DNA of 64,000 nt from Kondoa subrosea (GCA_039545335.1 BCIN01000001.1:922208-986207); one strand, 5' to 3'. Shown: positions 18,629 through 59,623, counted from the first letter of the stretch. The notes: a model not told the origin generated them from the letters alone. Made by a program: numbers and translations.

Positions 18629-20898
18629 TCACTTCGCTTCATCTTCTTTCTTGGATATAGGTTCCACATCAAACAATCCAGCTACGCTCAAAGCGCTAGC
18701 TTCTACTCCACTTTTTCTACCTACTGTTCCTTTCCCATTCAACAAACGTAGGCTAGCCTTCCCGCTCGTCGCGCCGAAACTGAGTACCGAATGAGTTGAA
18801 GGTGAGATGGATTTAGCTGATGTGAGTTGAGATGATTTAGTCATTGTTCTCGCTCGAGGAGATCTACGATATTCTGAAGGAGATGCTGGAGGAGAGAACG
18901 AGACAGAAGAATGTTCCGCTAAGACAGGCATGGTTTGAGGCGGCGAGGAAGAAGAAGTTTCGGTTGTTGTGGTCGAGGAAGAGAGTTCTGGCGTGTGTAA
19001 AGGCGTATGAGGTAAAGATAAAGGAGCGAGTACCCGGGGTGTAGTTTCGACAGAAGGGAATATTTCATGGTATCTGTCAGGCACGAAGAGAAAGGCTCAG
19101 CGCGATGTTCGCTGTGCTTCCCAAGTGACTGACCTTGAAATCATCACACGCAACATCGAACCGAAAGTTGGTCGGTCCGAACTGAGCAAATCAGACCATT
19201 TCGAACTGCTTTTGCTAGCTTTATGTTTATGACCGCGAAATTTCGCAGGCGAGGATGTCTTGGAGGCGAAAGGATTGCTTCCGACTACATGACATAGAGA
19301 AACATCTCTTGCTAAATCATCTGACCGAAGAAAGACTGGCGCCATACAGACGGCAAGATTGTACGAATCCATCTTGTTTGTATCTAGTTCACCATCAGCC
19401 TAATTCGCTTTGCAAAATGTAACGACGCTGACCTGAGCGTAAAGAAATCTCATGCAGCAATTCAAGTACAGCAGTCATCAGCACAACTTCACATTGACCC
19501 GTTTCTCTCTCAGCCAATTCGACCAAGAATCGATCTCGAATATAGTCAACCACATCCATAGCCGTGCCATCGAAATCAGCATCTTTTATTATCGGACATC
19601 GATCAATCAGAGCATAATCTTGCAAAGTAATCAGAGGTGAAGGTAATTCGCGCAAGAAGGTTTTCAGTAGGGAAGCAGCAAGGGCATGAGCGCTTTCTGA
19701 TCCTCCTTGATCATATCGAGCTAGGTTCACTGGATGACCTCGATCATAGGCTTCTTTGATTGTTCTCAGTGTTGTAGCGGAGGGGGAAACACGAAAGATG
19801 CCCTCAGTTGCGAGGCCTGTAAATGATACTACTATTCAAGCTCTGCAGAGCAATCCAACTGGATCACTCACCTTCCTGCCGTAGTAGTCTGATACAGTCT
19901 TTGACGACATTCGGTAAACCCGCTTCTCCGTCGGAACCCATAACCTGGTCACACATCTGTAAGTAAAGCATTTACAACTCAGTGAAGTACTCACGTCAAC
20001 TAGCGACACTCCGAAACACAGGTCTTTGGCTGCTCGATCAAGCGGTAAAGAGATAGTCTGCTCGACTTTGAGATTATGCTCGTATACCAGTGGAGGGATT
20101 TCGATCCTGGTCTTAAATTCAGTTTCGGTCTTCGCGGTGTTGAGATACTAACAGAGTGATATCCACTTCCTTTGCCAGTTCCGATAGATTGGGAACAGCT
20201 TTCAATTTGCCTTTCTTGTTGACCTGTCGACACAACCGAATGTTAAATTAGGTACTATCCTGTGAACGCAAGGTAATATCGACCTTATTGCTGACTATCC
20301 CATTCAGAAAGACTTTCATGATCATCCTGGTCCAGAAACCCGGGTGCACGACAAACAGACGCTGAACATTCTTTCGAGCATTCCTTGAGAGATTGAGGTA
20401 TCTTGATATAAGCATAGGTGTACTGAGATTAGCAGAAGTAGGAGAAGCGAAGAAGACGAGCTCGTAAGGCGTTGAAACGTATTGCTCCAGTCGGAAGTCA
20501 TACAGTCTGTCCAGCAATTGATTCACGTTGCTTTCTTTTGGTAGATTGCATGGACAGAGTACTAATAGAGGTAGACCTGAAGCTGTTGTTCCCGCTTGAA
20601 AAAATACAGAAGCGAGAATGGCATCAAGTGCTTCAATCTCTTCTATTGTGACAGCTGAAGTTGAGGCTGTAGGTGACTGCGGCTCTTCTGGAGCAGCTGC
20701 AAACGGATCTTGCCATTCTTCTAAAGCCTCTTCTTTACGATTAGAACCAAAGACAGAGCTCAGCGCAGGCCGCTTTGAACTCGCTTTCCTGGAATTGGTA
20801 TAGCGATGTGTTGGGAATGCTCCAGGCAGTCGCGGGCTGGTATCTGTGTCCACCAGCAAGGACTGCAGGTTTCTGATAGTGCTGGAAACCTTGGTCAT
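18629..20898 (-). CDS. CRAL-TRIO/BCH domain + RhoGAP protein (ARHGAP1-like)
   Basis: FFQAG..YELVFFA..KNVQRLFVVHPGFWTR; EGIFRVSP; ASLLKTFLRELPSPL; NKMDSYNLAVCMAPVFLR. Confidence 0.9.
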
Positions 20899-21306
20899 GG
20901 TCTCGAGTCAACAAGCAAAGCGTATACGAGAGTGAGAAGTTGGACAGCGACTGCCACCGCGATTATAGACCGATACAGAGCAACTTAGAACTGCCCGGAT
21001 CCCTGCGCGACTAGAGAAGCTGCTTCAATTCGAAATTGGATGCGAAAGTCACATGTCCATTCAAGTTGGCAAGCCAGGGAAGCGTCTGCATTGCTGTAAA
21101 TCCTCATTGGTCTCTTCGCTGAGCTATTGCTTGTCGAACACCACCTCAGATGCTCGAGTCAGACTCACTGACACAGCTTCGGCCTTAACCTAGTCATTCC
21201 TGACTATCTTTCTAATCTCTCCATTCGGCTTCTCTCTTTCATACAATCATCTCCTAGTCTTATCCCTCATCTATATTCCACTGTGTCCTCTACATTCCCC
21301 TCGTCA

Positions 21307-23819
21307 ATGAGCGAACTCGTCTGTACTTCTCAGCAAAGCCGATATCACGTTGATACGCTCGATACCTCTCAAGATATAGATCTGCACGATGTCTGTATCA
21401 CTCTCGGTCGAAGAGAACTGATACAACATAGTCGGTTAAAGATTAAGGAAGGTGTTCGGTATGCTTTAGTAGCTCGAAATGGCGCTGGTCAGTCCATACT
21501 TTGGCTCCATACATAGGGCCTATGTGAATTTCTGTATACAGGAAAGAGTACTCTGCTGAAAGCCCTGGCGGAAAAAGCGATTCCAGGCCTTTCGAACACC
21601 TTACGAATCTTGTTGCTTTCTCAAATAGAAGATGGTCTACGAGACACAACCAAGTCTTCCGCAGCTGATATCTCAGTTTTACAACACGTACTTCAGGGAG
21701 ATGAGAAGCGTACTAATCTACTTCATAAGGAATCTGGTTGGTTTGTATTTCTGCGCACACCTCGTATCTGATCATTCTTATACTGCAGTACTTCAGCAAG
21801 CAATAGAAAGCTCTGATCCTCAAGAAACATATCGAATCATCGCACGTCTTGAAGTAGCTCAACGAGAAGAAGATCTTCAGCTCGCGCAAAAGATTGCTGC
21901 AAGGAGATCAGGAGCCAGAGGGAAAGCTGCTCGGGAGAAAGAGATCACTGCCGAAGTCGAATTTAAAGAAGCAGACTTTGCGTGAGTACGAATTCGTCAA
22001 GTGGAGAGTAATGCTCATCATATAAATTCCGTTCTGCTTGTTTAGTTTGGAGCACCTGCATATGACAGATGGATCTCTTTTGGCGGTCACGAAAGCTACA
22101 GAGATGCTGGAAGAAGTTCAACTCGAGCTAAGCATGGTGTGTCCATTGTTGTGTAAAGCTATTATGTCTGATGGGATTAGCAGCTCGATTCGGAAACGGC
22201 TGAATCAAGGGCAGCAGCTATCTTGATTGGCTTGGGATTCAGTCAAGATATGATGAAAGGAGCTTACAGCTCGCTCTCAGGTGGTTGGCGATCAAGATGT
22301 CCTTTAGCTATAGCTTTACTAGTTCAGAGTGATATTCTTTGTTTGGACGAACCTTCTAATTTCCTCGTATGTCAAAATTTCCTTCAACGCATTGAAGATA
22401 TTCATTTGTCACCAGGATCTTGAAGCGATTCTTTGGCTCGAAACCTATCTTTGTCATTCGACCAGGACTCTCATCATCACTTCGCACGACCAAGTCTTTC
22501 TCAACAAAGTCTCTGAAGAAACGATTATCCTGCGGAACAAGTTGCTCAGCTATTTCGAAGGAACACCCGAGGCGTTTGAGGTTAACGAAGCGAAAGAAGC
22601 GAAAAGGAAATTCACCGCTAAAGAAGCGCTTGATCGCAAGAAGGAGCATATTGAAAAATCGATACAGCAAGGTCGAGCTGCTGCAAAAAGCTCTGGTGAC
22701 GAGAATCGAATGCGTATGGTGAAATCAAGGCAGAAGAAGTAGCTCTTCTGCCCCGATTAGCTCTTCCATGAGACTGATCATCTATTCACAGATTGGAAGA
22801 GCGATGGGGAGTAGAGACCAGCGCGAAGGGCGGCAAATTCAAACTGAACAGAGATTTAGCAGGTTGGCGTCGACCAAGCAGATTGATAATTCCACTGATT
22901 GCTTAATACAGGCTATCATCTAAGTATGCGAGCGGAAGTCGAGATTGATCAAGCAGAACCACCTGTCAAGATTACAATATCCGATGCTGAACCTCTTCGA
23001 AGTCGCGGCAATTTAGTTCATTTTGACAACGTTTCCTTTCTGTACAAAGGAGCAAGAAAGCCTCTTCTGCAAGGTGTAACTTTCACTGTGCCCGAGAATG
23101 GTCGATGTGCTTTCCTTGGAGCAAATGGGCAAGGCAAGAGTACTCTTGCTAAACTCATTTTGGGAGAATTGGCTCCCACTTCTGGTTCGATAACAAGGCA
23201 TCCCCTGATGAAGATCGGTTACTTCTCGCAACATTCAGTCGAAGACCTCGCTCAGAATTTCGCAAACATTAGTGCTCTGCAATACTTCGTCAGACATTTT
23301 AACCAGCTTAATGTTCAAGTTCAAGAAAGCGATGCTAGAGCTTGCCTTGGATCTTTCGGGCTTTCAGGAAAGCTGGCTGTAGAGGTACCGATTGTCAAGC
23401 TTTCAGGTGGACAAAGAGTTCGGCTAGCTTTGGCCTTAATCGTCTTTCGACCGCCTCATCTGTTGCTATTGGATGAAGTCACCACCCATCTGGATCAGCA
23501 GACTATTCGCGCTTTAGGTAAGGCATTACGAAATTTCAATGGTGCAATCATTCTCATCACTCACGATCGGTTAGTACCGCTCTTCTGCCTAAAAACGTTC
23601 GCTGAGTAGTCTCACCTGTATAGATGGTTCTCTCGAGTCGTGGTGGAAGGCCATTGTTATGAAGAGGAAGACGAAGCGAGCGACGAGGAAGAGGCACAAG
23701 TCGGTTCGACGTACAAAGTAGGCGGCGGAAAAGTGAGATTGCTGCAAGGCGGTATGTCAGAGTACATTTCGTTTGTTGAGCGGAAAATTGCAAGGCGCAA
23801 ATACCCTCCAATAAGCTAA
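21307..23819 (+). CDS. Soluble twin-ABC ATPase, ABCF (Gcn20/Arb1-like) family
   Basis: Two cassettes: ARNGAGKST/LSGGWRSR/LDEPSNFLD/TSHD and GANGQGKST/LSGGQRVR/LDEVTTHLD/ITHD; no TM domain. Confidence 0.93.
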
Positions 23820-29201: not shown

Positions 29202-30128
29202 ATGGGTGTTGAAGTGCGTCTGGTTGATCTTGAGCTGGCACCTGAGCCTCAGGTGAGAACCATAATGTACAGGTCGAATCTCTATCTGCCGGTGATGGCA
29301 AGAGTGAGTCTCATGTTTAGCGATTTATCGTGAATTGGATTTCTGACGTGCTTTTGTGATAGATTTCCCAAAGAAGGGCGATACGTACGTCTGGATCATT
29401 GCTTTCTCGATACAGAGCTCTAGCGTCATTCTGCACGTACAGCGTCTCTATGGTGAGCTATTGTCATATTAGATCAGCCGAATCGAGACTGATCACTTTG
29501 ATTGGTAGCACTATGTTGGCACTCTTCTAGATGGATCAAAGTTCGATAGCTCCAGAGACAGAGGTACTCCTTTCGTCACTCAGATCGGTCTGTCCCTTTT
29601 TCGCTTAAGATCTGAAACTTGACTGAATACCGAATCGAAAGGTGTTGGACGAGTCATCAGAGGTCAGTCGGCAGCTCCAAATGTGTACAATATAGCTGAG
29701 AATCCTAACATAGGTTGGGATGAGGGCGTTCCCCAGCTTTCAGTTGGTCAAAAGGCAGTCTTGACCTGCTCACCTGATTAGTGAGTTCTTCTGTCCAAAA
29801 ATCGCCGAATCTATGCTTATTGCGTTTTTGCAGCGCTGTATGCTTATTCTCTTGACATTGGATCGCGAACTTATCATGCTCTACAGTATGATAAGTTTTG
29901 CTTATGTTCCGGAAGTTGTGATCTGACCTTACCGTGTGATAATTACGCGCTCGCGGATTTCCCCCTGTAATTCCGTAAGCGTGCTCTGATTGTACTGATT
30001 GGCAGCTCATGTTGATTTCAAATGTATAGCGCCAATGCTACGTATGTCATAATTTGGAAGTGTTCACCTTTCGTGCTGATTTCATCTGCAGCCTCAAGTT
30101 CGAAGTCGAGCTACTCAAGATCAACTAA
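29202..30128 (+). CDS. FPR1: FKBP12 peptidyl-prolyl isomerase, 108 aa, 12 coding exons
   Basis: Exons of 12,31,22,10,79,21,67,4,4,28,12,37 nt sum to 327 nt: [108 protein letters not shown]. Confidence 0.95.
29891..29946 (+). other. AT-AC intron with U2-type signals (FKBP12)
   Basis: TATG|ATAAGT...CTGACC...ATTAC|GCGCTCGCGGA, 56 nt; removal gives YG-ARGFPP. Confidence 0.9.
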
Positions 30129-30817
30129 ATGTCGAAAATATCAACTTCTGCAAAGGGAAAAGCATGATTGCATTCACATTAGAGAGTATTGGCGAGCATA
30201 TAAGGGCTGTCGATTGAATATTGTGTCTCTATGCAATCTTACATTAGACCGTTTCATATGCATGCAATTCAAGTGATCGGAACGGTTACGATCATCTAGC
30301 TTATTCTTCTAGTCAATGACCAAGCAAACCATATAACTCGCAAGTAGACTTAGACACGGCGTCAGAATATCGGAAGTTTGGAGTGGGTAAAAAATCTTCC
30401 TAAATTTTTCGCTTGTTTGCCGCATCGATGACATTCAAGCAAATGAGGCAGTCAAAGAGAGAGAGAACAGCATGGTCATAGCGATGAGTTCAGAAGGCGA
30501 TGGATTCAGGAAAGAGACGGTGACAACTAGCTCTGTCGAGCGAAACGAAAACGCAAAAGTAAAAATCTCTTGCTCGCTCTGCCATATGCACTCGAGCAAG
30601 CAGAAGCACAATGCCGTAAGCATGGAAGAAGATGTAGATGGGCTGGCTAAGAGAACCAAATTCCACCTCCACTGTACATTGTTGCTATTCAAAGAGAGAA
30701 CTGAAGAAGGAAAGGAAGGTGTCGGACTGGCGAATGTACTGCTACTTGTGATTGTGGAAATCTGATAATGCAAGTCCCAAGCCTGGCCAGAAATACAAAT
30801 CAACTCCAGCCAAGCGT

Positions 30818-31886
30818 TTCTGCAATCCGGATCAATATTGAACAAGCCAAATGAAGCCCAAAAGCACTGACACTTCTTCTTTGCAACGCCGACAGTCTTT
30901 CCTCTGCGTCCAGTGGTACAGGTGTGTTGACCTCTGACTCTGAGACCCCAGTAGTGACGAAGACCACGATGGTTGCGGATCTTCTTGAGTCTTTCTAGAT
31001 CTTCACGCATCTTGGAGTCAAGACCGTTTGATAGAACTTGGTAGTCTTTGCCATCGACGATATCCTTTTGTCTGTTCAAGAACCATTTAGGAATCTTGAA
31101 TTGAGCAGGGTTTTGCATAATGGTGACAATTCGTTCAAGTTCATCTGAGTTGAGCTGACCAGCACTGTGATAAGCAAAAGGGTACGGATCAGAATCGTTC
31201 TGATGAGCCATCCTTTGCCCTCACCGCTTGTTGAGATCTACATCGGCCTTGCGGCAGACAGTGCACGCATAACGACGTCCAACACCCTTGATTTCAGTCA
31301 AGGCGAACCTGTTGACGGCGTCAGCCTGAATCTATTGGCAGCTGTTCAAAGACTTGCATGATCTTCCTTCGTCCATCGACGCTATCTCAAAGGTCAGCAT
31401 ACGAATCGACCTGGGACGTTTAGAATGTGCGTACTTTGTGTTGAGAAGTCGGAGGATGTGTTGGAACGGTGCATTTCTTTCTCTCCTTTTTTCATTTCTC
31501 TCCTCAAAATAGTAAGCAATCTGACTTACGGGTCGGGCGCTACCTGTTAACAAGAATCAAACTAGTCAGCATATATCCTGACAGGTGAGGAATGTATATG
31601 TAAAGGCTTTGATGCCGGGCAGATGAAATTATGCAGGAGCAGAGGTTTGGCGACAAAAGCTAGCAGATTTGACAATCCCACCACTTGCGAGCTCGGCATA
31701 TGTAGCGGGCGGGCTACTGCAGGCAAGAGCTGGGCTGCAGACTCCATGCAGGCCGAAATGGGTATATGCAAGTATTTTGACATTCGACATGCCAAATTCT
31801 GCTAAGTCGGGTCGAAAGCACTTGCAGAGCCTGACTATCTTGCGTGCAGAGCCATAGAAAGGTGCATGGAGACTCACGAGACTCAT
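30818..31886 (-). CDS. RPS18: 40S ribosomal protein uS13 (S18)
   Basis: [66 protein letters not shown]; 6 introns including a GC-AG (31309-31357); stop split T|AA. Confidence 0.97.
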
Positions 31887-32027: not shown

Positions 32028-33760
32028 CTATTGCTGCCTCAATTTAATCGGCACAGCAGCGCTAACAGGCAAAGCAGCCAGTTCCTTCTCAAACTCATCT
32101 TCCCCTTCCGCTTTCCCAGCAAGCAACACTTCCAACTGACCGAGCATCGTTTCCCCGTTATCCAAGAACGTTTGCAAGCGATTCATCTGATCTCGTCCTT
32201 GAGCTAAAGAAGCAGTCAATTGATCTCGGAATTGAACGAGATCCGTGATTTCTTGCGAAGGTAGGTTGCTGTAAGATGAAGGTACAGGAGAAGATTGAGA
32301 ATAAGTAGAAGGTGCTTGACTTGGGTTGCGAGCAGAGTTATCAACTTGCGGTGATGGATCTTCTCCTATAGCTGCCGCTGCTAAAAGAGCATCCATTCCC
32401 GTTTCGCCTGCTGCTGAGTTTTGGCTGCGCATACGCTTGAGAGCTGGAGTTTGTACTTCTTCATCTGGAATAGGTGAAGCTCGCTTTTTCTCTGCTTTAG
32501 GCGCACTCGCTTCGGCTTCAGCTGCTGCTTTATTCTGTGCTTTCACCTGTACAAGGCGCTTTCAATTCATCTGATATACAGATATGTACAGCGCACGTAC
32601 ACTAGCCGGCAAACGCTTCCGTCGCTTGATCGTAGGCTTTTTCAGACCATTCGGTCGATGTTGATTGTGCAACTTGAAGTACAAACCTGTCTAAAGTATT
32701 AGCTTAGAAAACGCTCCTAAGCAACCAGTACTGACCACAAGCCTGTGAAACCCCAGCAATTGTTCAGTCAAATTACACGACTGAAATCAACAGGGCTCAC
32801 ATTACAGCAAGTATTGCCATCTGAATCTCTTCTCCAAAGGGGTGTAGTCCCCGTTCCACAATTAGTACAAACCATAGCCGAAACAGCACCTTCTTCTCCG
32901 TTTTCCAAATTCGCCCAAGCAGGAACTGGTGCTTTTCCTTTCGCAGTAGCACTACCACGATCGTTCGACGACATCGAATTTTTGTCCTCAACTTGTTGTT
33001 GCTGTTGATGATTAGGACGTGCAGTCTTGGAAGAAGCGTTGTGCTTGTTGTTGTAAGCTGGACAACCAGTGCAAACGTTTTTCCCTCCTTGACCATTGCA
33101 ATGTCCATCACCCGGACAAGAACCAACTGGAGGTTCTGCTTCTCTCTTCTTCGAAACAGGTTTCGATGATGATGAAGTTGAGGAAGAAAGATAAGGACTG
33201 GGAGGTTGATTAGCTGAATTTGGTTGACGAGGTGGAACAATTGGAGCTGAGAAAGCTTGCATAGATCCAGCCGAAGTGGATGGCAATTGAGTAGGTGTAT
33301 ACCTGGGCGAGAGCTGCCTAGCCATGTTCTGCTCTTGAGTAGCTATGCAAAGATATACTGTCAGGTAAAGTCAAAAGACCAATCAACTGGGAAACCCACA
33401 ACAACCCTGAATGACAACAAGTCAGTAGTGATCAATGTAAATACGAGAAAAACTGACAAGACATAAAGGTCTGTCATGATTGCCTTTATGCGCTTGAAGC
33501 ATACCAGTCAAACCGCAACGACTGCATTGTGAGCCATGTGTAGCAGGTGATGCCGCGGCTGAGCTAGCAGACAAGTAGTAGTTACTGTTCGCGTTGGGAG
33601 AAGAGCCCAAGACTTGGCCGTCATGCGTTAGGCGAGGTAAAGATAGAGGTGCAAATGAAGAAGCAGGAGACAGCGAGGGCAGATAATTCAGACCTTGGTT
33701 ATTGCTATGAGCTGTACTGAGCTGAGCCCACAGGCCAGGCATAGATTGAGAGTTATCCAT
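32028..33760 (-). CDS. Iron-responsive GATA transcription factor (SreA/Urbs1/Cir1 type)
   Basis: Cys-rich GSCPGDGHCNGQGGKNVCTGCPAYNN, then GATA finger [38 protein letters not shown]; C-terminal coiled coil. Confidence 0.9.
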
Positions 33761-46743: not shown

Positions 46744-49400
46744 TCATACGCGTGCCTCGCTATTCGCGAATTTCAATGCAGCCTTTCCGAATAATCTTGG
46801 GGCCTTTGATTGTATCCAATGAGGAGGTATAGATGAAACAGTCCGAATATATGTTTGAGTTGTAAGAATCTGCATCGCATTTCAACGCCGACAAGATCAC
46901 GCCTCATATGAAGACTCACCAGCTCATGATACATGACAGCTTGAGCTTTCTTTTGATGCAATATAGAACTAGGGTGGACCTTGACCGGCTGCATCCTGAT
47001 ATGAGCTTCATCTTATAGACACGGAAACAACTCACCAATCTACCGACGACCTTCTGATATTTCCCGTCCGCAAACCTGAGCGCCGTATTCTGATGAAATC
47101 CAGCCATACAAGCTTCTAAGATCATAGACAGATCATCACCGCAAGAAACTTTCCAATCCATTCCTAAACGTTCACAACGTTCTCTCAACTGTTTCCTCGC
47201 TTCCAGTACATTGGCCATTGTTTTGACATTGATGAAGTTTTCCTTCAGCCAAGCAGTTCGATCTGATTTGGTTGCTGATGGTTCTATAGAATCGTAAGCT
47301 GCTAAAACGTTGAACAGCGTAAGGTGATCTCCATCTCGGTGAACGAATTTCGAGTGTGCTTCTTGAGCTTGTTCTCTTATATTTGTAGAAGTGATGAGAA
47401 GGTTATCGGAGTAGGATAAGAGAGAAACGAGGGAAACGACTTCCGATGGACAACCGATATCGAAGGAAGCAATCAGAGCTCGAGCAGAAGTCGGTTCGAG
47501 AGGAAAAGCCGCCATCAGTTTGCCAATCTCGGAGATCCCTTGCTTGTTATCGACTGCGCCTAGTGCGTATAAATGTAGCATAGCTTCCGTCACTACCAAT
47601 CTGTCAGTTTGTGCCGATGTTGAGCTGAGCTTGGGCTCACTAGCGTCTGCTTCCGGCGGATCCATGAATTCGAAAGTGAAGACATTATCCTGTCCACTAG
47701 CTAAAAGATGAAGAAGGGCGAATTGCAGACTACATCGCTGAATTTCCGGTATTTGCGATTGAGGTAGATCCAAATAGTCTTGTTCACGATAGAGTCTAAA
47801 GCAGGTACCACTTGACTGTCCAAGATATGATAATGTTAGCTGCTGCAAGAAGCAAAATGCGATCAGCTCTCGAACCTCTCGACCTGCTCTACCAGCCCTT
47901 TGCATGGCACTAGACTTGCTGATAGGTTTCACCAAAAGCGAGTCCATGCCTGTCAGTCCTTCGTTCAAAGACAGCCATGTGGCCAAGTCTGAATAGAAGG
48001 CTGACCATTCAAAGCATGATAAGTTTTCTCTTTCATCATCCCGCAATCGATGACATATTTCACGCCAGGTATAGTGACTGAAGTTTCAGCTACATTAGTC
48101 GAGAGGATGACTTTCCGAGTACCCGGTGCAGCCTTCTGAAAAGCTTTGGCTTGCTGGGCAGGTGGTAACTTGGCAAATAATGGACATATTTCGATCTGTT
48201 CGAATTTGCCCTTATCAGCTGACAGTCAGCGGAAGGAAGTGTAATTCGAACCTTGCTCTTATCTGATTTTAGATTCTTCGAGTAGAATTGTATCGACGAA
48301 GATATGTTCTCGATATCTTCTTCACCGGTGAGAAAGATGAGCACATCACCCGGCGGCTGCTCAACATGTGTAACAAAGAAGGTTTTGAGTGCTGCGTCTA
48401 GGTAATCTGTTTGTGCTTCTATTGCATACTGAATCTTGACTTTATGTTGTCGACCTTGCACATATAGAATTTGCGCACTGTACACAAATGAAGTCCCTAG
48501 TCAGTGGCTGAGTCGACAAGCACAAACAAGTTGCGCACTTATCAAAGTAGGCTGAGAAACGCTCTGCATCCAAAGTAGCGCTCATTACTATAATCTTGAG
48601 TTCCGTTTGATCTTTGTTCGGATCCTCTTTTGCTCTAGCTTTCCTAGCTCTTTGTACTTTCTTCAGGAAGCCGAGCACCATATCCGTTCTTAGCGTCCGT
48701 TCATGCGCTTCATCTACTATAACTACATCATACCGATCCAGCAATGAATCCGCTAGCAATTCTTGTAAGAGTGTACCATCGGTGACGAACTTGCATTTCG
48801 TTTGAGGCGAAGAACAATCGTCGAATCGGACAGTATAACCAACTGTTCCTCCTAGTTTGGAAGCGACTTCTTGAGCAACTCGAGTTGCTAAAGAAATAGC
48901 TGCTACTCTTCTTGGTTGGGTCACACAGATGCGATTAGATGAAGAAGCATCCAGTAGGAATTGTGGGACTTGTGTAGTCTTGCCTGAACCAGTTTCGCCC
49001 AAGATGACTATCGTGTCGTTTTCTTTCACAGCTTGTACAATAGCATCTTTTCCTGGCAATCATTCGGATCACTATCAGATACGGAGCCTGACAGCTGCGA
49101 TCCCTCTGGCTGACCTTGCCAGATAGGTAGTTGCATTCGAGCTGGTAATAAGCCAGCAGCTCTCTCTGCTCGGTCTTTCTGACTCTTCTTGTTATCCAAT
49201 TTGACAGGATGCGTTTCTTGCTCATCTCCGGAAACTGGCTCATCATTCAGTCTCACTCGTTTGGCTGGTGAATTCGGTTTTGTTGATGCAGGTCTTTTAG
49301 CATTGTTGCGAGCTGGAGAGACGGGAGAAGGAGGTAGTACGCTTGTAGATGCTATGGGAACACCTGAATCCTCTTGCTTCTCTGGGAAATAAGTCTTCAT
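46744..49400 (-). CDS. DEAH-box RNA helicase (Dhr2/DHX33-like)
   Basis: GETGSGKTTQVPQ, TQPRRVAA, DEAHER, MSATL, STNVAETSVTIPG, QRAGRAGRE, HA2 region. Confidence 0.93.
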
Positions 49401-55982: not shown

Positions 55983-57124
55983 CTACTCCTACAATCGAAG
56001 AAGTAATACATCAGCTCTAGCCAAAGGTCAGGGGAAGAAGCAAACCTTTTGCTCCTCCTTTTCGATCTCTGCAATAGCACCTCTCTTCTCTGCCAGTCTC
56101 TGTTGACGTCTGTCGCGCATAGCCTTGTTCCTGCAGGCAAAATCGCTATTTAGCATTGAAAATACTTTCAGGTGAAATCGACCCACTTGACACGGCGAAC
56201 CTCCATCTGGTCTGAAAGGTTCTTGGTTCGGGTAGCTTCAGCCTTGAGCTTGTGAATGGCATCGACTAATTGACGCTTGTTCTTGTAGACGTTACCCTTG
56301 GATTTTAGGTAGAGGGAGTGGTAACTGCAGGTGTCCCGCAAACCCATGTCAACAAATATACATGTACGCAAAGGTTGAACGCACAGGTGCTTGTCGATCT
56401 TTCCGGCTTCACGGTATTTGCGTAGTAGACGACGGAGAACTCGCTGTCTTCGCATCCAGAGTACCTTGGTTGGCATACGGGCTTCAGATGTACCCTTCCT
56501 GTACGATGGAAAAGCAGGATTACTATCATACTGTACCAATCTGGCCAGAATCGCACCTTTTACCGGTTCCGGTGTGTCGTCCTTTTGATTTGGCATCGTG
56601 CAGATCACGAACTCTTGCGCGAGAGTGAACTTTGGCAGGTCGGCTGTGATGGAGAAGATTTGCCATGAGACAGAAACCTCTTGCTGGCATGGATCTCGCA
56701 CGCACATAGTAATGTAACCATCTTTCTTCAATTTGCGGATACCTTGACGGGAGTTGGCTTGAGCGATGTCAGTGATTCTGTTAGGGTCGAAGTTGATCTG
56801 TAGGACAGGACAAAGGCAGTATTAGTGCCTTGTTCATGCAGCAATATAGGTCGATTCGGATAAAATTGAAGATCTTGCTATGACAGTGGCCCGAGCAGAC
56901 GTTTTGCGTCTCTTGCTGTCGAGTACATGTGTACGGGTATATAGCACAAGGCAGAGACAGCTGGAAGGGGTATGCACAGCGATATTGCAGGAGACTTGCC
57001 TTTCTTTTTCCAACTGTTGACGGGAGATCAGTAATATTCATCAAGTCTGTTGGAGATAGGGACCTTTCAGGACAGAGGCCGCAAGCCTCTTCTGGAAGAG
57101 CAGATTGCTGACGCTGGAGGACAT
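55983..57124 (-). CDS. RPL19: 60S ribosomal protein eL19
   Basis: [79 protein letters not shown]; 7 introns. Confidence 0.96.
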
Positions 57125-57251: not shown

Positions 57252-59623
57252 TTAACGCACTAGTCTTACAGCATAAGTTAGAATACTCAGATCCTCCTGA
57301 ATCTGATTTTAGCTCATGTCCATATAGCATCGTATAAGCTTACCTCTGAATCGCAATAGAAATAGCAGCTGTCAGCGCCTCGGAAACTGTTACAGACATT
57401 AGCGCACTAAATAAACCCTAAAAAGACGACTTTACCTCAAAGTGAAAGAATTGGGCAAAGTAGTTTCATCCTCTATGCCTTCCGTGAGACGAGGACCGCT
57501 TTGCGAATCAAGTGACACAACTTGTATCGGTTTTGTATCCTGTCATTTTGAAAGCTCATAAGCTAAAGCTAGCAAATCCGCTTGCGACTGACCGTTTGAC
57601 TCTTGTATAGATCCATTTTCGTTGCGCTCAATCTGAAGTATCTTCTCCTCCATATCTACCTCAACCAGTGAGTAAAGAATGACACAACAGTCTTCAACTC
57701 ACTATTGAATTGGAAGCCTGCGCATTCACCCAACCTTCAAGCATTACTTCCCCGGTCGATTGTTTCCTCTTGATCCTGGCTTGCAACTCTTCATGGGCTC
57801 TCAACTTCTCTTTCCTTTCATTCTCTTGCATCTCGCGTACTTTTCTTTCCTCCTCTTCTTTCACTCTCTGCCTCTCAAGTTCTTCTTCCCTCTTTCGAGC
57901 TTCTGCCGCTTCTTGAACTAATCGTTTCTCTTCAGCTATCTTTTCTTCTCTTTCCACTAAAGCTAATCGTTCAGCTTCCAACCTCATCCTCTCAGCAGCT
58001 ATTCTTTGTTCTTGCTCTTCTTTCGCTAACCGGTCCAATTCCGCTTGATCGACTCTAGGACTGACTGGTGATTTAGGTGAAGTAGGTGAAGTAGGTTGAG
58101 ATATTTCATTCAAAGAAGATAAAGAAGGTTTACCATTCCTTTTCACACCAGGTTCAGAAGAAGAAGATCTTCTACTTCTACCTCCTCCTCCTGATTGTGA
58201 CCGAGGCGAAGAATTTCGATCTGGTTGTTCTTCACGTGTGAAAACAGCAGGTAAAGAGATTTTCGATTGATTGGAAACAGTACGTTGTCGAACTTGTGGA
58301 TCTTTACCTAAAGAAGATTGTCTAGGTGAATGAGGTGGTTGATAGTCCTCGTTACTTTGCTGAACAGGTGATGAGTAAGGAATAGGTTCATGTTCGCCAA
58401 GATGGGTTGCTTGATAAGCATTTTTGATATTTTCTGCTTCGGATCCTGATTGAGCCAGAGTTTCCCTTGGTTGTGCAGGAGTGACTGGTCGACTATTCTG
58501 GACCGGAGGAGTCGGAGCAGGTTCGTGAAAGATTCCTACGTGCGAAGCGGCAGCTGAAGCAGGTGCTCGAGGTAAAATGCCATCAAAAGTCGACGGCATT
58601 GCTATAGGTGATGGAAGAGGAGCATTACCGCTCACAGGCGTTTGGTCTGGCATGTTGTCGATCTTGAGACCATTATTCTGGATTTGAGGGACATTGATCG
58701 ATCTTGAAAGAGGCATATCATCTTCATCGTCTGATTGATGGGATGTCATAGTCGAGAATATAGGACTATCATGACTCAGACCAGATATTCTTCTAGGCTG
58801 CTGCTGCTGTTGTTGCTGCTGTTGGAAGGACTGCTCTGGAGCTAGATGAGTAGGCGAGGAAGCAGCCGAAGAAGTGCTTGACTTCAGACTGTGCACGTCT
58901 TTCACGGGTACAGAGGGAGGAAGATGTGATCCTTCTCTAGCTTGATAAGCAGGCGAGACGGGTCGAGATGAAGAAGAAGATTGTTGGAAGTGGGTTTGCT
59001 GTACATTCGGGGATGGAGGCAGAGATCCAGAGCCGGTGCCATCCAAGCGCAATTTCGATCGAACAATATTGTGAGAGAAAGAGTCGACATTAGATATGGT
59101 TAGAGAAGCGAAATGCTTGAGATTAGAGCCCAGTGTCCTTTGATGTACCAGTGATCTGGCTCTTTTGACACCGCTGAGTGAGTCTTCAGGCATGAAGGAC
59201 CATAAGAGTAGACGATTCTCTACGTTCAAAAGACCAAAGCGAGCATCTGGACTTGGTTTGCTCAGGTGTACTTTCATGGCTTCCAACCCTCCTGGTCCAG
59301 ACGCAGCGACATGTAGCGTATCTCTCGAGCCGAAGTAGTCGAGGATCAGAAAGTCTGTTGAGTGCGAAGCAGAAGAGACTTCATTGTATGCTGCAGAAGG
59401 CAAGATGCATTAGTAAAGCAATGAAAGACAGAGACAGGCGTCTTGAAGCCAAATGGAGAGCTCATGATAGCTCATGAGTAGCATAGAACACCAGGGTTGG
59501 CTGAAGGAAGACCAAGCACAAGCAGAGCACACTCGAGCCAAAGTCCCAAACAACAAGGCACGCTGAACAGCACAATGATGGCTTACCTGCTGCTATAGCT
59601 GGATCTTGTAAGTTCAAGCTCAT
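57252..59623 (-). CDS. ADF-H-like domain + disordered linker + coiled coil + PH domain protein
   Basis: DPAIAAAYNEV..FLILDY..GPGGLEAM..RFGLL..SGVKRARSLVH (coactosin/drebrin-like); E/R coil; MLEGWVNAQ..IWRRRYFRL..PNSFTL. Confidence 0.75.

Follow-up and report, generated by a model that had tools for sequence, protein, structure and literature searches.

An FKBP12 gene model with two consecutive four-nucleotide exons followed by a putative U2-type AT-AC intron in a basidiomycete-like fungus

FKBP12, the target of FK506 and rapamycin, is encoded on the plus strand at 29202–30128 of the window, i.e., of the whole 64-kb stretch of DNA that was analyzed. The coding region starts with the ATG at 29202, ends with the TAA closing at 30128, and is divided into 12 exons and 11 introns. 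The exons measure, in order, 12, 31, 22, 10, 79, 21, 67, 4, 4, 28, 12, and 37 nt, and joining them by their coordinates gives 327 nt (108 codons and the TAA), whose product is an FKBP12 containing the sequence PDYAYGARG. All 11 introns are 49–59 nt long; ten have GT-AG termini and one, the ninth (29891–29946), has AT-AC termini.

Other genes in the window were recognized from matches of ORF pieces. On the minus strand, these include ribosomal protein uS13 (Ribosomal_S13, 30438–31220), which is convergent with FKBP12, Ribosomal_L19e (56171–56821), a DEAH-box helicase (DEAD and HA2 domains, 46919–49059), a CRAL/TRIO domain (20251–20907), and a weakly matching GATA zinc finger (32771–33370), while an ABC transporter ATPase (22899–23606) lies on the plus strand. 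An antisense ORF at 29708–30037 had no Pfam match. The median exon of the FKBP12 gene is ~21 nt, as against stop-free stretches of up to 571 codons in the other genes of the window, and the crowding with introns is therefore specific to this gene and not genome-wide. The helicase exon at 46919–48085 (minus strand) has its best named matches in Pucciniomycotina (Mixia, Sporobolomyces, Leucosporidium, and Rhodotorula, 45–48%; Puccinia, 42%). For the ORF at 57697–59409 (minus strand) the named matches are basidiomycetes, and the top matches (37–57% identity) are assembly and metagenome proteins. These similarities reveal no close annotated relative and suggest a basidiomycete, a placement drawn from best matches at 42–57% identity only, and the source lineage seems to be poorly sampled.

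Homologues of the FKBP12 product were searched with a 52-aa query, obtained by translating in frame from exon 6 through intron 6 into exon 7. These proteins bear the name FK506-binding protein 1 and have the PF00254 domain. With P0015, the closest database FKBP12, the joined product can be aligned along its full 108 residues, 94 of which are identical, and it shows 70–83% identity to 13 further homologues. P-D-Y-A-Y-G is invariant in all eight aligned homologues, and a profile built from the homologues retrieves solved FKBP12 structures (6tz8, 5hwb, 1yat). Judged by these similarities, the gene product is an FKBP12 of ~108 aa, with a single FKBP domain (FKBP_C, PF00254) and conserved binding-loop residues. 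Three Kwoniella homologues (P0003, P0006, P0014) are annotated with an N-terminal extension of 27–29 residues, rich in S, T, and R, ahead of the customary MGVTV start; the extension could serve as a targeting peptide or result from annotation of an upstream start.

The unusual part of the gene extends from exon 7 to exon 10. Exon 7 (29714–29780, 67 nt) has the final bases ...GATTA, the last two of which open the Tyr codon of PDY. It is followed by intron 7 (29781–29833, GT-AG, 53 nt), which contains a branch-like CTTAT motif and has the 3′ end ...TTTTTGCAG. Micro-exon 8, CGCT (29834–29837), lies between ...TTTTTGCAG and GTATGC, and provides the third base of Tyr and the Ala codon. Intron 8 (29838–29886, GT-AG, 49 nt) is followed by micro-exon 9, TATG (29887–29890), which lies between ...CTCTACAG and ATAAGT and provides the Tyr codon and the first base of Gly. 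Next comes the AT-AC intron 9 (29891–29946, 56 nt), which opens with the donor ATAAGT and closes with ...AATTAC, and then exon 10 (29947–29974, 28 nt), which begins GCGCTCGCGGA. Exons 8 and 9 both qualify as micro-exons, being internal, not longer than 15 nt, flanked by splice signals (CAG/GTATGC and CAG/ATAAGT, respectively), and required for the reading frame. The two four-base exons encode part of the invariant Y-A-Y-G, in the most conserved, drug- and substrate-binding loop of the protein.

The parse of this region is constrained by the coding sequence. Parses were enumerated with the start of exon 7 and the end of exon 10 fixed, allowing up to three introns of 30–250 nt. With GT-AG and GC-AG introns only, none of 1238 paths from exon 7 to exon 10 keeps the frame open. 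Permitting AT-AC introns gives 586 open parses, every one of which uses the AC at 29946, and the parse described above ranks first among them by homologue score (179, with the runner-up at 164). It is the sole parse of the actual 166-nt interval that gives the 8 nt required for Y-A-Y-G, and when the interior of the interval was shuffled, any parse to the required 8 nt was found in 2 of 20000 cases, or in 9 of 20000 with the end set to AG. The AT-AC parse is thus more than chance. The boundaries of intron 9 (29891/29946) are set by the coding sequence, and a one-base slide is excluded since the flanking bases differ. The original prediction, made from the DNA, had proposed the two micro-exons CGCT and TATG followed by an ATAAGT...TTAC intron, the PDYAYGARG motif in a 108-aa protein, and the lack of any AG close to the 3′ terminus of that intron. 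The micro-exons and the intron are found exactly where it placed them, the protein is recovered by exon joining and by alignment with the homologues, and the last internal AG ends at 29915, i.e., 31 nt before the intron end. The first AG downstream of the intron finishes at 29979, 33 nt away. We infer that the gene is spliced according to this model, with both four-base exons retained and the AT-AC intron removed.

A different interpretation would be that this FKBP12 copy is decaying or mis-assembled, both ends of what was once a GT-AG intron having been lost, or that the mRNA is processed differently. The protein of the source organism is absent from the 53 candidates of the protein search, and FKBP12 is dispensable in other fungi; for example, transposon insertions in the Cryptococcus FKBP12 gene FRR1 were recovered as drug-resistant mutants (PMC12810828). 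Both points would fit a decayed copy, but the GT-AG termini of the other ten introns are intact and no stop interrupts the reading frame. Moreover, the two changes at intron 9 are the single combination known to be mutually compensating, the donor otherwise follows the optimal consensus, and no other open parse comes near the homologue. A decayed or mis-assembled copy, or a different processing of the mRNA, is therefore regarded as very improbable. FKBP loci were also collected from metagenomes with the patterns G[QKR]VIKGWD and TC[ST]PDYAY, both of which straddle intron positions of the FKBP12 gene. Of 573 confirmed loci, 80 were kept, and none of these is split at PDY/AYG (tblastn gave multiple matches, or a short one, for 14 of them), a result that is uninformative on intron conservation. 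The 80 loci kept are intron-less or cDNA-like, with 50–67% identity.

AT-AC termini occur in introns of both spliceosomes. Donors of U12-type introns have the consensus /(A or G)TATCCTT, and the U12 branch site, TCCTTAAC, is located ~10–20 nt from the intron 3′ end. Intron 9 has AT and AC termini and a donor reading /ATAAGT rather than /ATATCCTT. This donor agrees with GTAAGT at five of six positions, position 1 alone being different (G to A), whereas ATAAGTTT agrees with ATATCCTT at five of eight positions and misses the TCC core. Two branch-like motifs are found in the intron: the A of CTGAC is at 29926 and that of CTTAC at 29931, which is 20 and 15 nt before the intron end, respectively. 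In the wider context of the latter, ACCTTACC partly resembles TCCTTAAC, and it also fits the ordinary CTNAY. U2-type AT-AC introns are described, in a passage of PMC5029451, as having a “very strong /ATAAGT consensus,” and in PMC10639083 minor introns and minor snRNAs are reported as absent from Ascomycota and Basidiomycota, with no convincing minor intron in either group. On the grounds of the donor consensus and of this reported lack of minor introns in Basidiomycota, intron 9 is filed as a putative U2-type AT-AC intron, probably removed by the major spliceosome. A U12-type intron removed by the minor spliceosome would share the AT-AC termini, and the CCTTAC placed 15 nt from the 3′ end bears a faint likeness to the U12 branch site, but the donor fits the U2-type consensus instead and the same paper, PMC10639083, reports no minor introns or snRNAs for Dikarya as a whole. 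The window, which spans 64 kb only, contains no snRNA or other Rfam family. Assignment to the minor spliceosome is thus extremely improbable.

The combination of termini has consequences for exon skipping. [quoted passage not shown] Because of this interaction, GT..AC and AT..AG pairings are disfavored. Skipping of exon 9 (GT 29838 to AC 29946), of exons 8 and 9 together (GT 29781 to AC 29946), or of exon 10 (AT 29891 to AG 30029) is therefore expected to be hindered, whereas skipping of exon 8 alone (GT 29781 to AG 29885–29886) uses a compatible pair and would remove a 106-nt GT-AG intron. The products of skipping exon 8, exon 9, or both would have 89, 89, and 80 aa, frame-shifted or truncated with respect to the 108 aa of the full product. 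It had been proposed that skipping of the micro-exons requires a disfavored joining of GT to AC. By the known chemistry this holds for exon 9 and for exons 8 and 9 together, but fails for exon 8 alone.

The stronger form of the proposal is an adaptive lock, in which the AT-AC termini were selected as orthogonal to the neighboring GT and AG sites and fix the inclusion of TATG and the junction with exon 10. The logic is sound insofar as the first/last-nucleotide rule does forbid the mixed pairings and blocks two of the three skipping routes for the 4-nt exons. Skipping errors would be costly, each product losing the conserved C-terminal third; a rare intron type (~0.02–0.03% of fungal introns) occupies precisely the most crowded place in the gene; and an analogue is known in the interlocked U2/U12 sites of MAPK8/9 (PMC8329584). 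Enforcement of inclusion is nevertheless only partial, with exon 8 left unprotected, and it is not needed elsewhere in the gene. Exon 8 (4 nt), exon 4 (10 nt), and exon 11 (12 nt) have GT-AG introns on both sides, and swapped termini are therefore unnecessary for the inclusion of tiny exons in FKBP12. Three of the 11 introns adjoin a 4-nt exon, which is the chance for a lone AT-AC intron to do so, and the adjacency of the AT-AC intron to a micro-exon in one gene is without statistical weight. Across the window, the pattern ATAAGT..branch..YAC has five candidates, compared with a mean of 3.15 in 20 shuffles, and is uninformative. The orthogonal termini are a consequence of known chemistry as opposed to a demonstrated adaptation, and selection for a lock appears unlikely.

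An RNA hairpin is predicted over the AT donor at 29865–29901 (plus strand), with a 16-bp stem, one bulge, and the loop CTAC (29881–29884). Its 5′ arm (29865–29880) is the 3′ part of intron 8 and includes a branch-like ACTTATC, and its 3′ arm (29885–29901) includes the AG of intron 8, TATG, and ATAAGTT; the underlying inverted repeat is 13 nt long and 92% complementary. The 46-nt fold has a minimum free energy (MFE) of −17.9 kcal/mol (z −5.30), and none of 200 shuffles was as stable. The stem is retained in both the MFE and the centroid structures of a 206-nt fold. When the ten internal exons were compared, each with 26 nt upstream and 12 nt downstream and 300 shuffles, the context of exon 9 was the only strong outlier (z −6.51, 0/300), followed by those of exon 10 (z −2.49, 6/300) and exon 8 (z −1.42, 26/300), with the remaining internal exons at −1.11 to +1.53. 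On the plus strand of the window, 48 of 21319 46-nt segments (19 loci) fold below −17.9 kcal/mol, the segment of the hairpin itself lying at this threshold and being left out of the 48 through rounding. In the stem, A1 of intron 9 pairs with U29874, where a G would form a wobble pair. An alternative and mutually exclusive pairing, 81% complementary, joins 29861–29876 with the 3′ end of the AT-AC intron (29937–29952).

As modeled, the hairpin would mask the AT donor and also the AG of intron 8, and it could serve in timing, could occlude a cryptic GT at 29886, or could have no role. A structure-based explanation would hold that the stem hides the AT donor, the cryptic GT, and TATG until intron 8 has been handled, the order of removal being set by RNA structure; the A1 change would then have strengthened the stem by an A-U pair in place of a G-U wobble, and the AT-AC termini would be secondary. 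The stability of the fold, its persistence in the longer context, the isolated position of exon 9 among the internal exons, the rarity of equally stable segments, and the existence of a competing pairing all speak for such a role. However, the stem buries the AG of intron 8 together with its best-placed branch-like motif, ACTTATC, and therefore looks inhibitory for the very intron whose removal would have to come first. The hairpin was also a post hoc find, ~1.4% of window positions lie within an equally stable hairpin, and some complementarity is expected because the branch-like CTTAT and the donor ATAAG are reverse complements. Ordering of introns 8 and 9 primarily by RNA structure is considered quite improbable.

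Short repeats are found in the same interval. The hexamer GCTTAT, complementary to the ATAAGT donor and overlapping with the branch-like CTTAT, is present in introns 7, 8, and 9, at 29815, 29842, and 29900 (within the stretches 29812–29824, 29839–29848, and 29899–29906, respectively), and three or more copies occurred in one of 5000 shuffles of the interval. In intron 7, 29812–29824 is an 11/13 near-copy of the mature sequence across both micro-exons, and a near-copy as good was seen in 9 of 5000 shuffles. GCTTAT is not enriched across the window, with 34 matches compared with 29.9 expected. An origin of introns 7–9 by tandem duplication is not supported, as introns 8 and 9 were outside the eight best of 55 intron pairs (best z 3.21). 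The hairpin over the AT donor and the non-random copies of GCTTAT suggest some additional constraint or history beyond what is predicted by a plain neutral account.

The reading favored here, with a probability of about 60%, is that intron 9 is a real and constitutive U2-type AT-AC intron following two real 4-nt exons, that its orthogonal termini are a by-product, and that it probably arose by a compensated double change. The gene would be a genuine and presumably constitutive FKBP12 of a basidiomycete-like fungus, its 327 coding bases broken up by 11 short introns, which is an extreme load. Each of the short introns is most likely recognized singly, by intron definition, and introns 7–9 are probably removed sequentially because splice sites 4 nt apart could hardly be occupied simultaneously. 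The A1/C-1 pair would make the ends of intron 9 usable only with each other and would, as a side effect, forbid two of the three routes for skipping a tiny exon. The most likely origin is a G1 to A change compensated by a G to C change at the 3′ end, a route that may be taken more readily by a dispensable gene. What the favored reading leaves unexplained is the coincidence of an AT-AC intron directly after two 4-nt exons.

A more ambitious idea combines the two features. The swapped termini (A1/C-1) and the local donor hairpin could together be a cis-encoded fidelity and ordering device, in intron-crowded fungal genes, for exons whose shortness leaves no other means of defining them, with the AT-AC pair making the intron orthogonal to its GT-AG neighbors and the stem timing the availability of the donor. 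This is rather unlikely; if such a device were general, U2-type AT-AC introns should be enriched beside ultra-short exons across basidiomycetes. Irrespective of its origin, the locus would, if the splicing is confirmed, offer a natural test bed of <200 nt for the handling of consecutive 4-nt exons by the spliceosome, and it could show whether the first/last-nucleotide rule is exploited to restrict the pairing of sites. FKBP12 would be truncated or mis-framed by gene predictors that disregard exons of 4 nt and introns of the AT-AC type.

Micro-exons and U2-type AT-AC introns are each already known. In three fungi with gene models backed by RNA-seq, 0.03% of the introns are AT-AC (PMC4084796), and fungal annotations contain ~430 AT-AC and ~2.27 million GT-AG introns (our arithmetic from a table of PMC7072748). 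Among the titles, abstracts, and term-matched passages of the literature searched, AT-AC termini were linked neither to micro-exons nor to FKBP12, and no case of two consecutive ultra-short exons followed by a non-GT-AG intron was reported.

Compared with fungal FKBP12 proteins of solved structure (6tz8, 5hwb, 1yat), the protein described here is ordinary, having the same single FKBP domain of 108 aa with the invariant PDYAYG; only the gene structure is unusual. The FKB1 gene of Malassezia, for example, has no introns at all (PMC5654937). The exon sizes have parallels in other basidiomycetes. In Cryptococcus neoformans H99, the shortest exons measure 1 bp, coding-region introns have a median length of 55 nt, and there are 5.7 introns per gene (PMC3990503); in Coprinopsis cinerea exons of 15 nt or less were counted in 1,165 gene models and exons of 3 nt or less in 89, according to the relevant passage of PMC12230235. 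These ultra-short exons resemble the predicted exons 8 and 9 in being constitutive coding exons of a few bases, flanked by introns of ~50–60 nt, whose omission destroys the frame; here, in contrast, two tiny exons are consecutive and are followed by a non-GT-AG intron.

The AT-AC intron itself is best compared with metazoan and yeast examples. U2-type AT-AC introns of metazoans, also called “type II,” were reportedly described by Wu and Krainer in 1997. Such introns, for which PMC5029451 cites Sheth et al. (2006), share with intron 9 the AT..AC termini and the /ATAAGT donor, and they too are otherwise ordinary short introns containing a branch-like CTRAY motif. Unlike these, the putative intron 9 is fungal, is 56 nt long, and directly follows two 4-nt exons. 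In yeast, an engineered A1/C-1 (AT-AC) intron is spliced (Parker and Siliciano, 1993, cited in the same part of PMC5029451), and the RPL30 intron of Saccharomyces cerevisiae has a natural minor AT-AC isoform, a side product of 1–2% with a non-consensus donor (passage on RPL30 in PMC5029451). As presented in these passages, the yeast cases show that the major spliceosome alone can splice AT-AC introns, the A-C pair substituting for the G-G contact. In contrast to the RPL30 side product, AT-AC removal in FKBP12 would be required for the only functional protein.

The closest parallel to a restriction of splice-site pairing is found in MAPK8/9 and TMEM87a/b, in which interlocked U2- and U12-type sites enforce the splicing pattern (PMC8329584). 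The likeness consists in donors and acceptors that are not combinable and thereby limit which exons can be joined. In these genes, the incompatibility is between two spliceosomes and results in mutually exclusive alternative exons, whereas the hypothetical incompatibility in FKBP12 would act in the second catalytic step of a single spliceosome, the major one, and would protect a constitutive exon.
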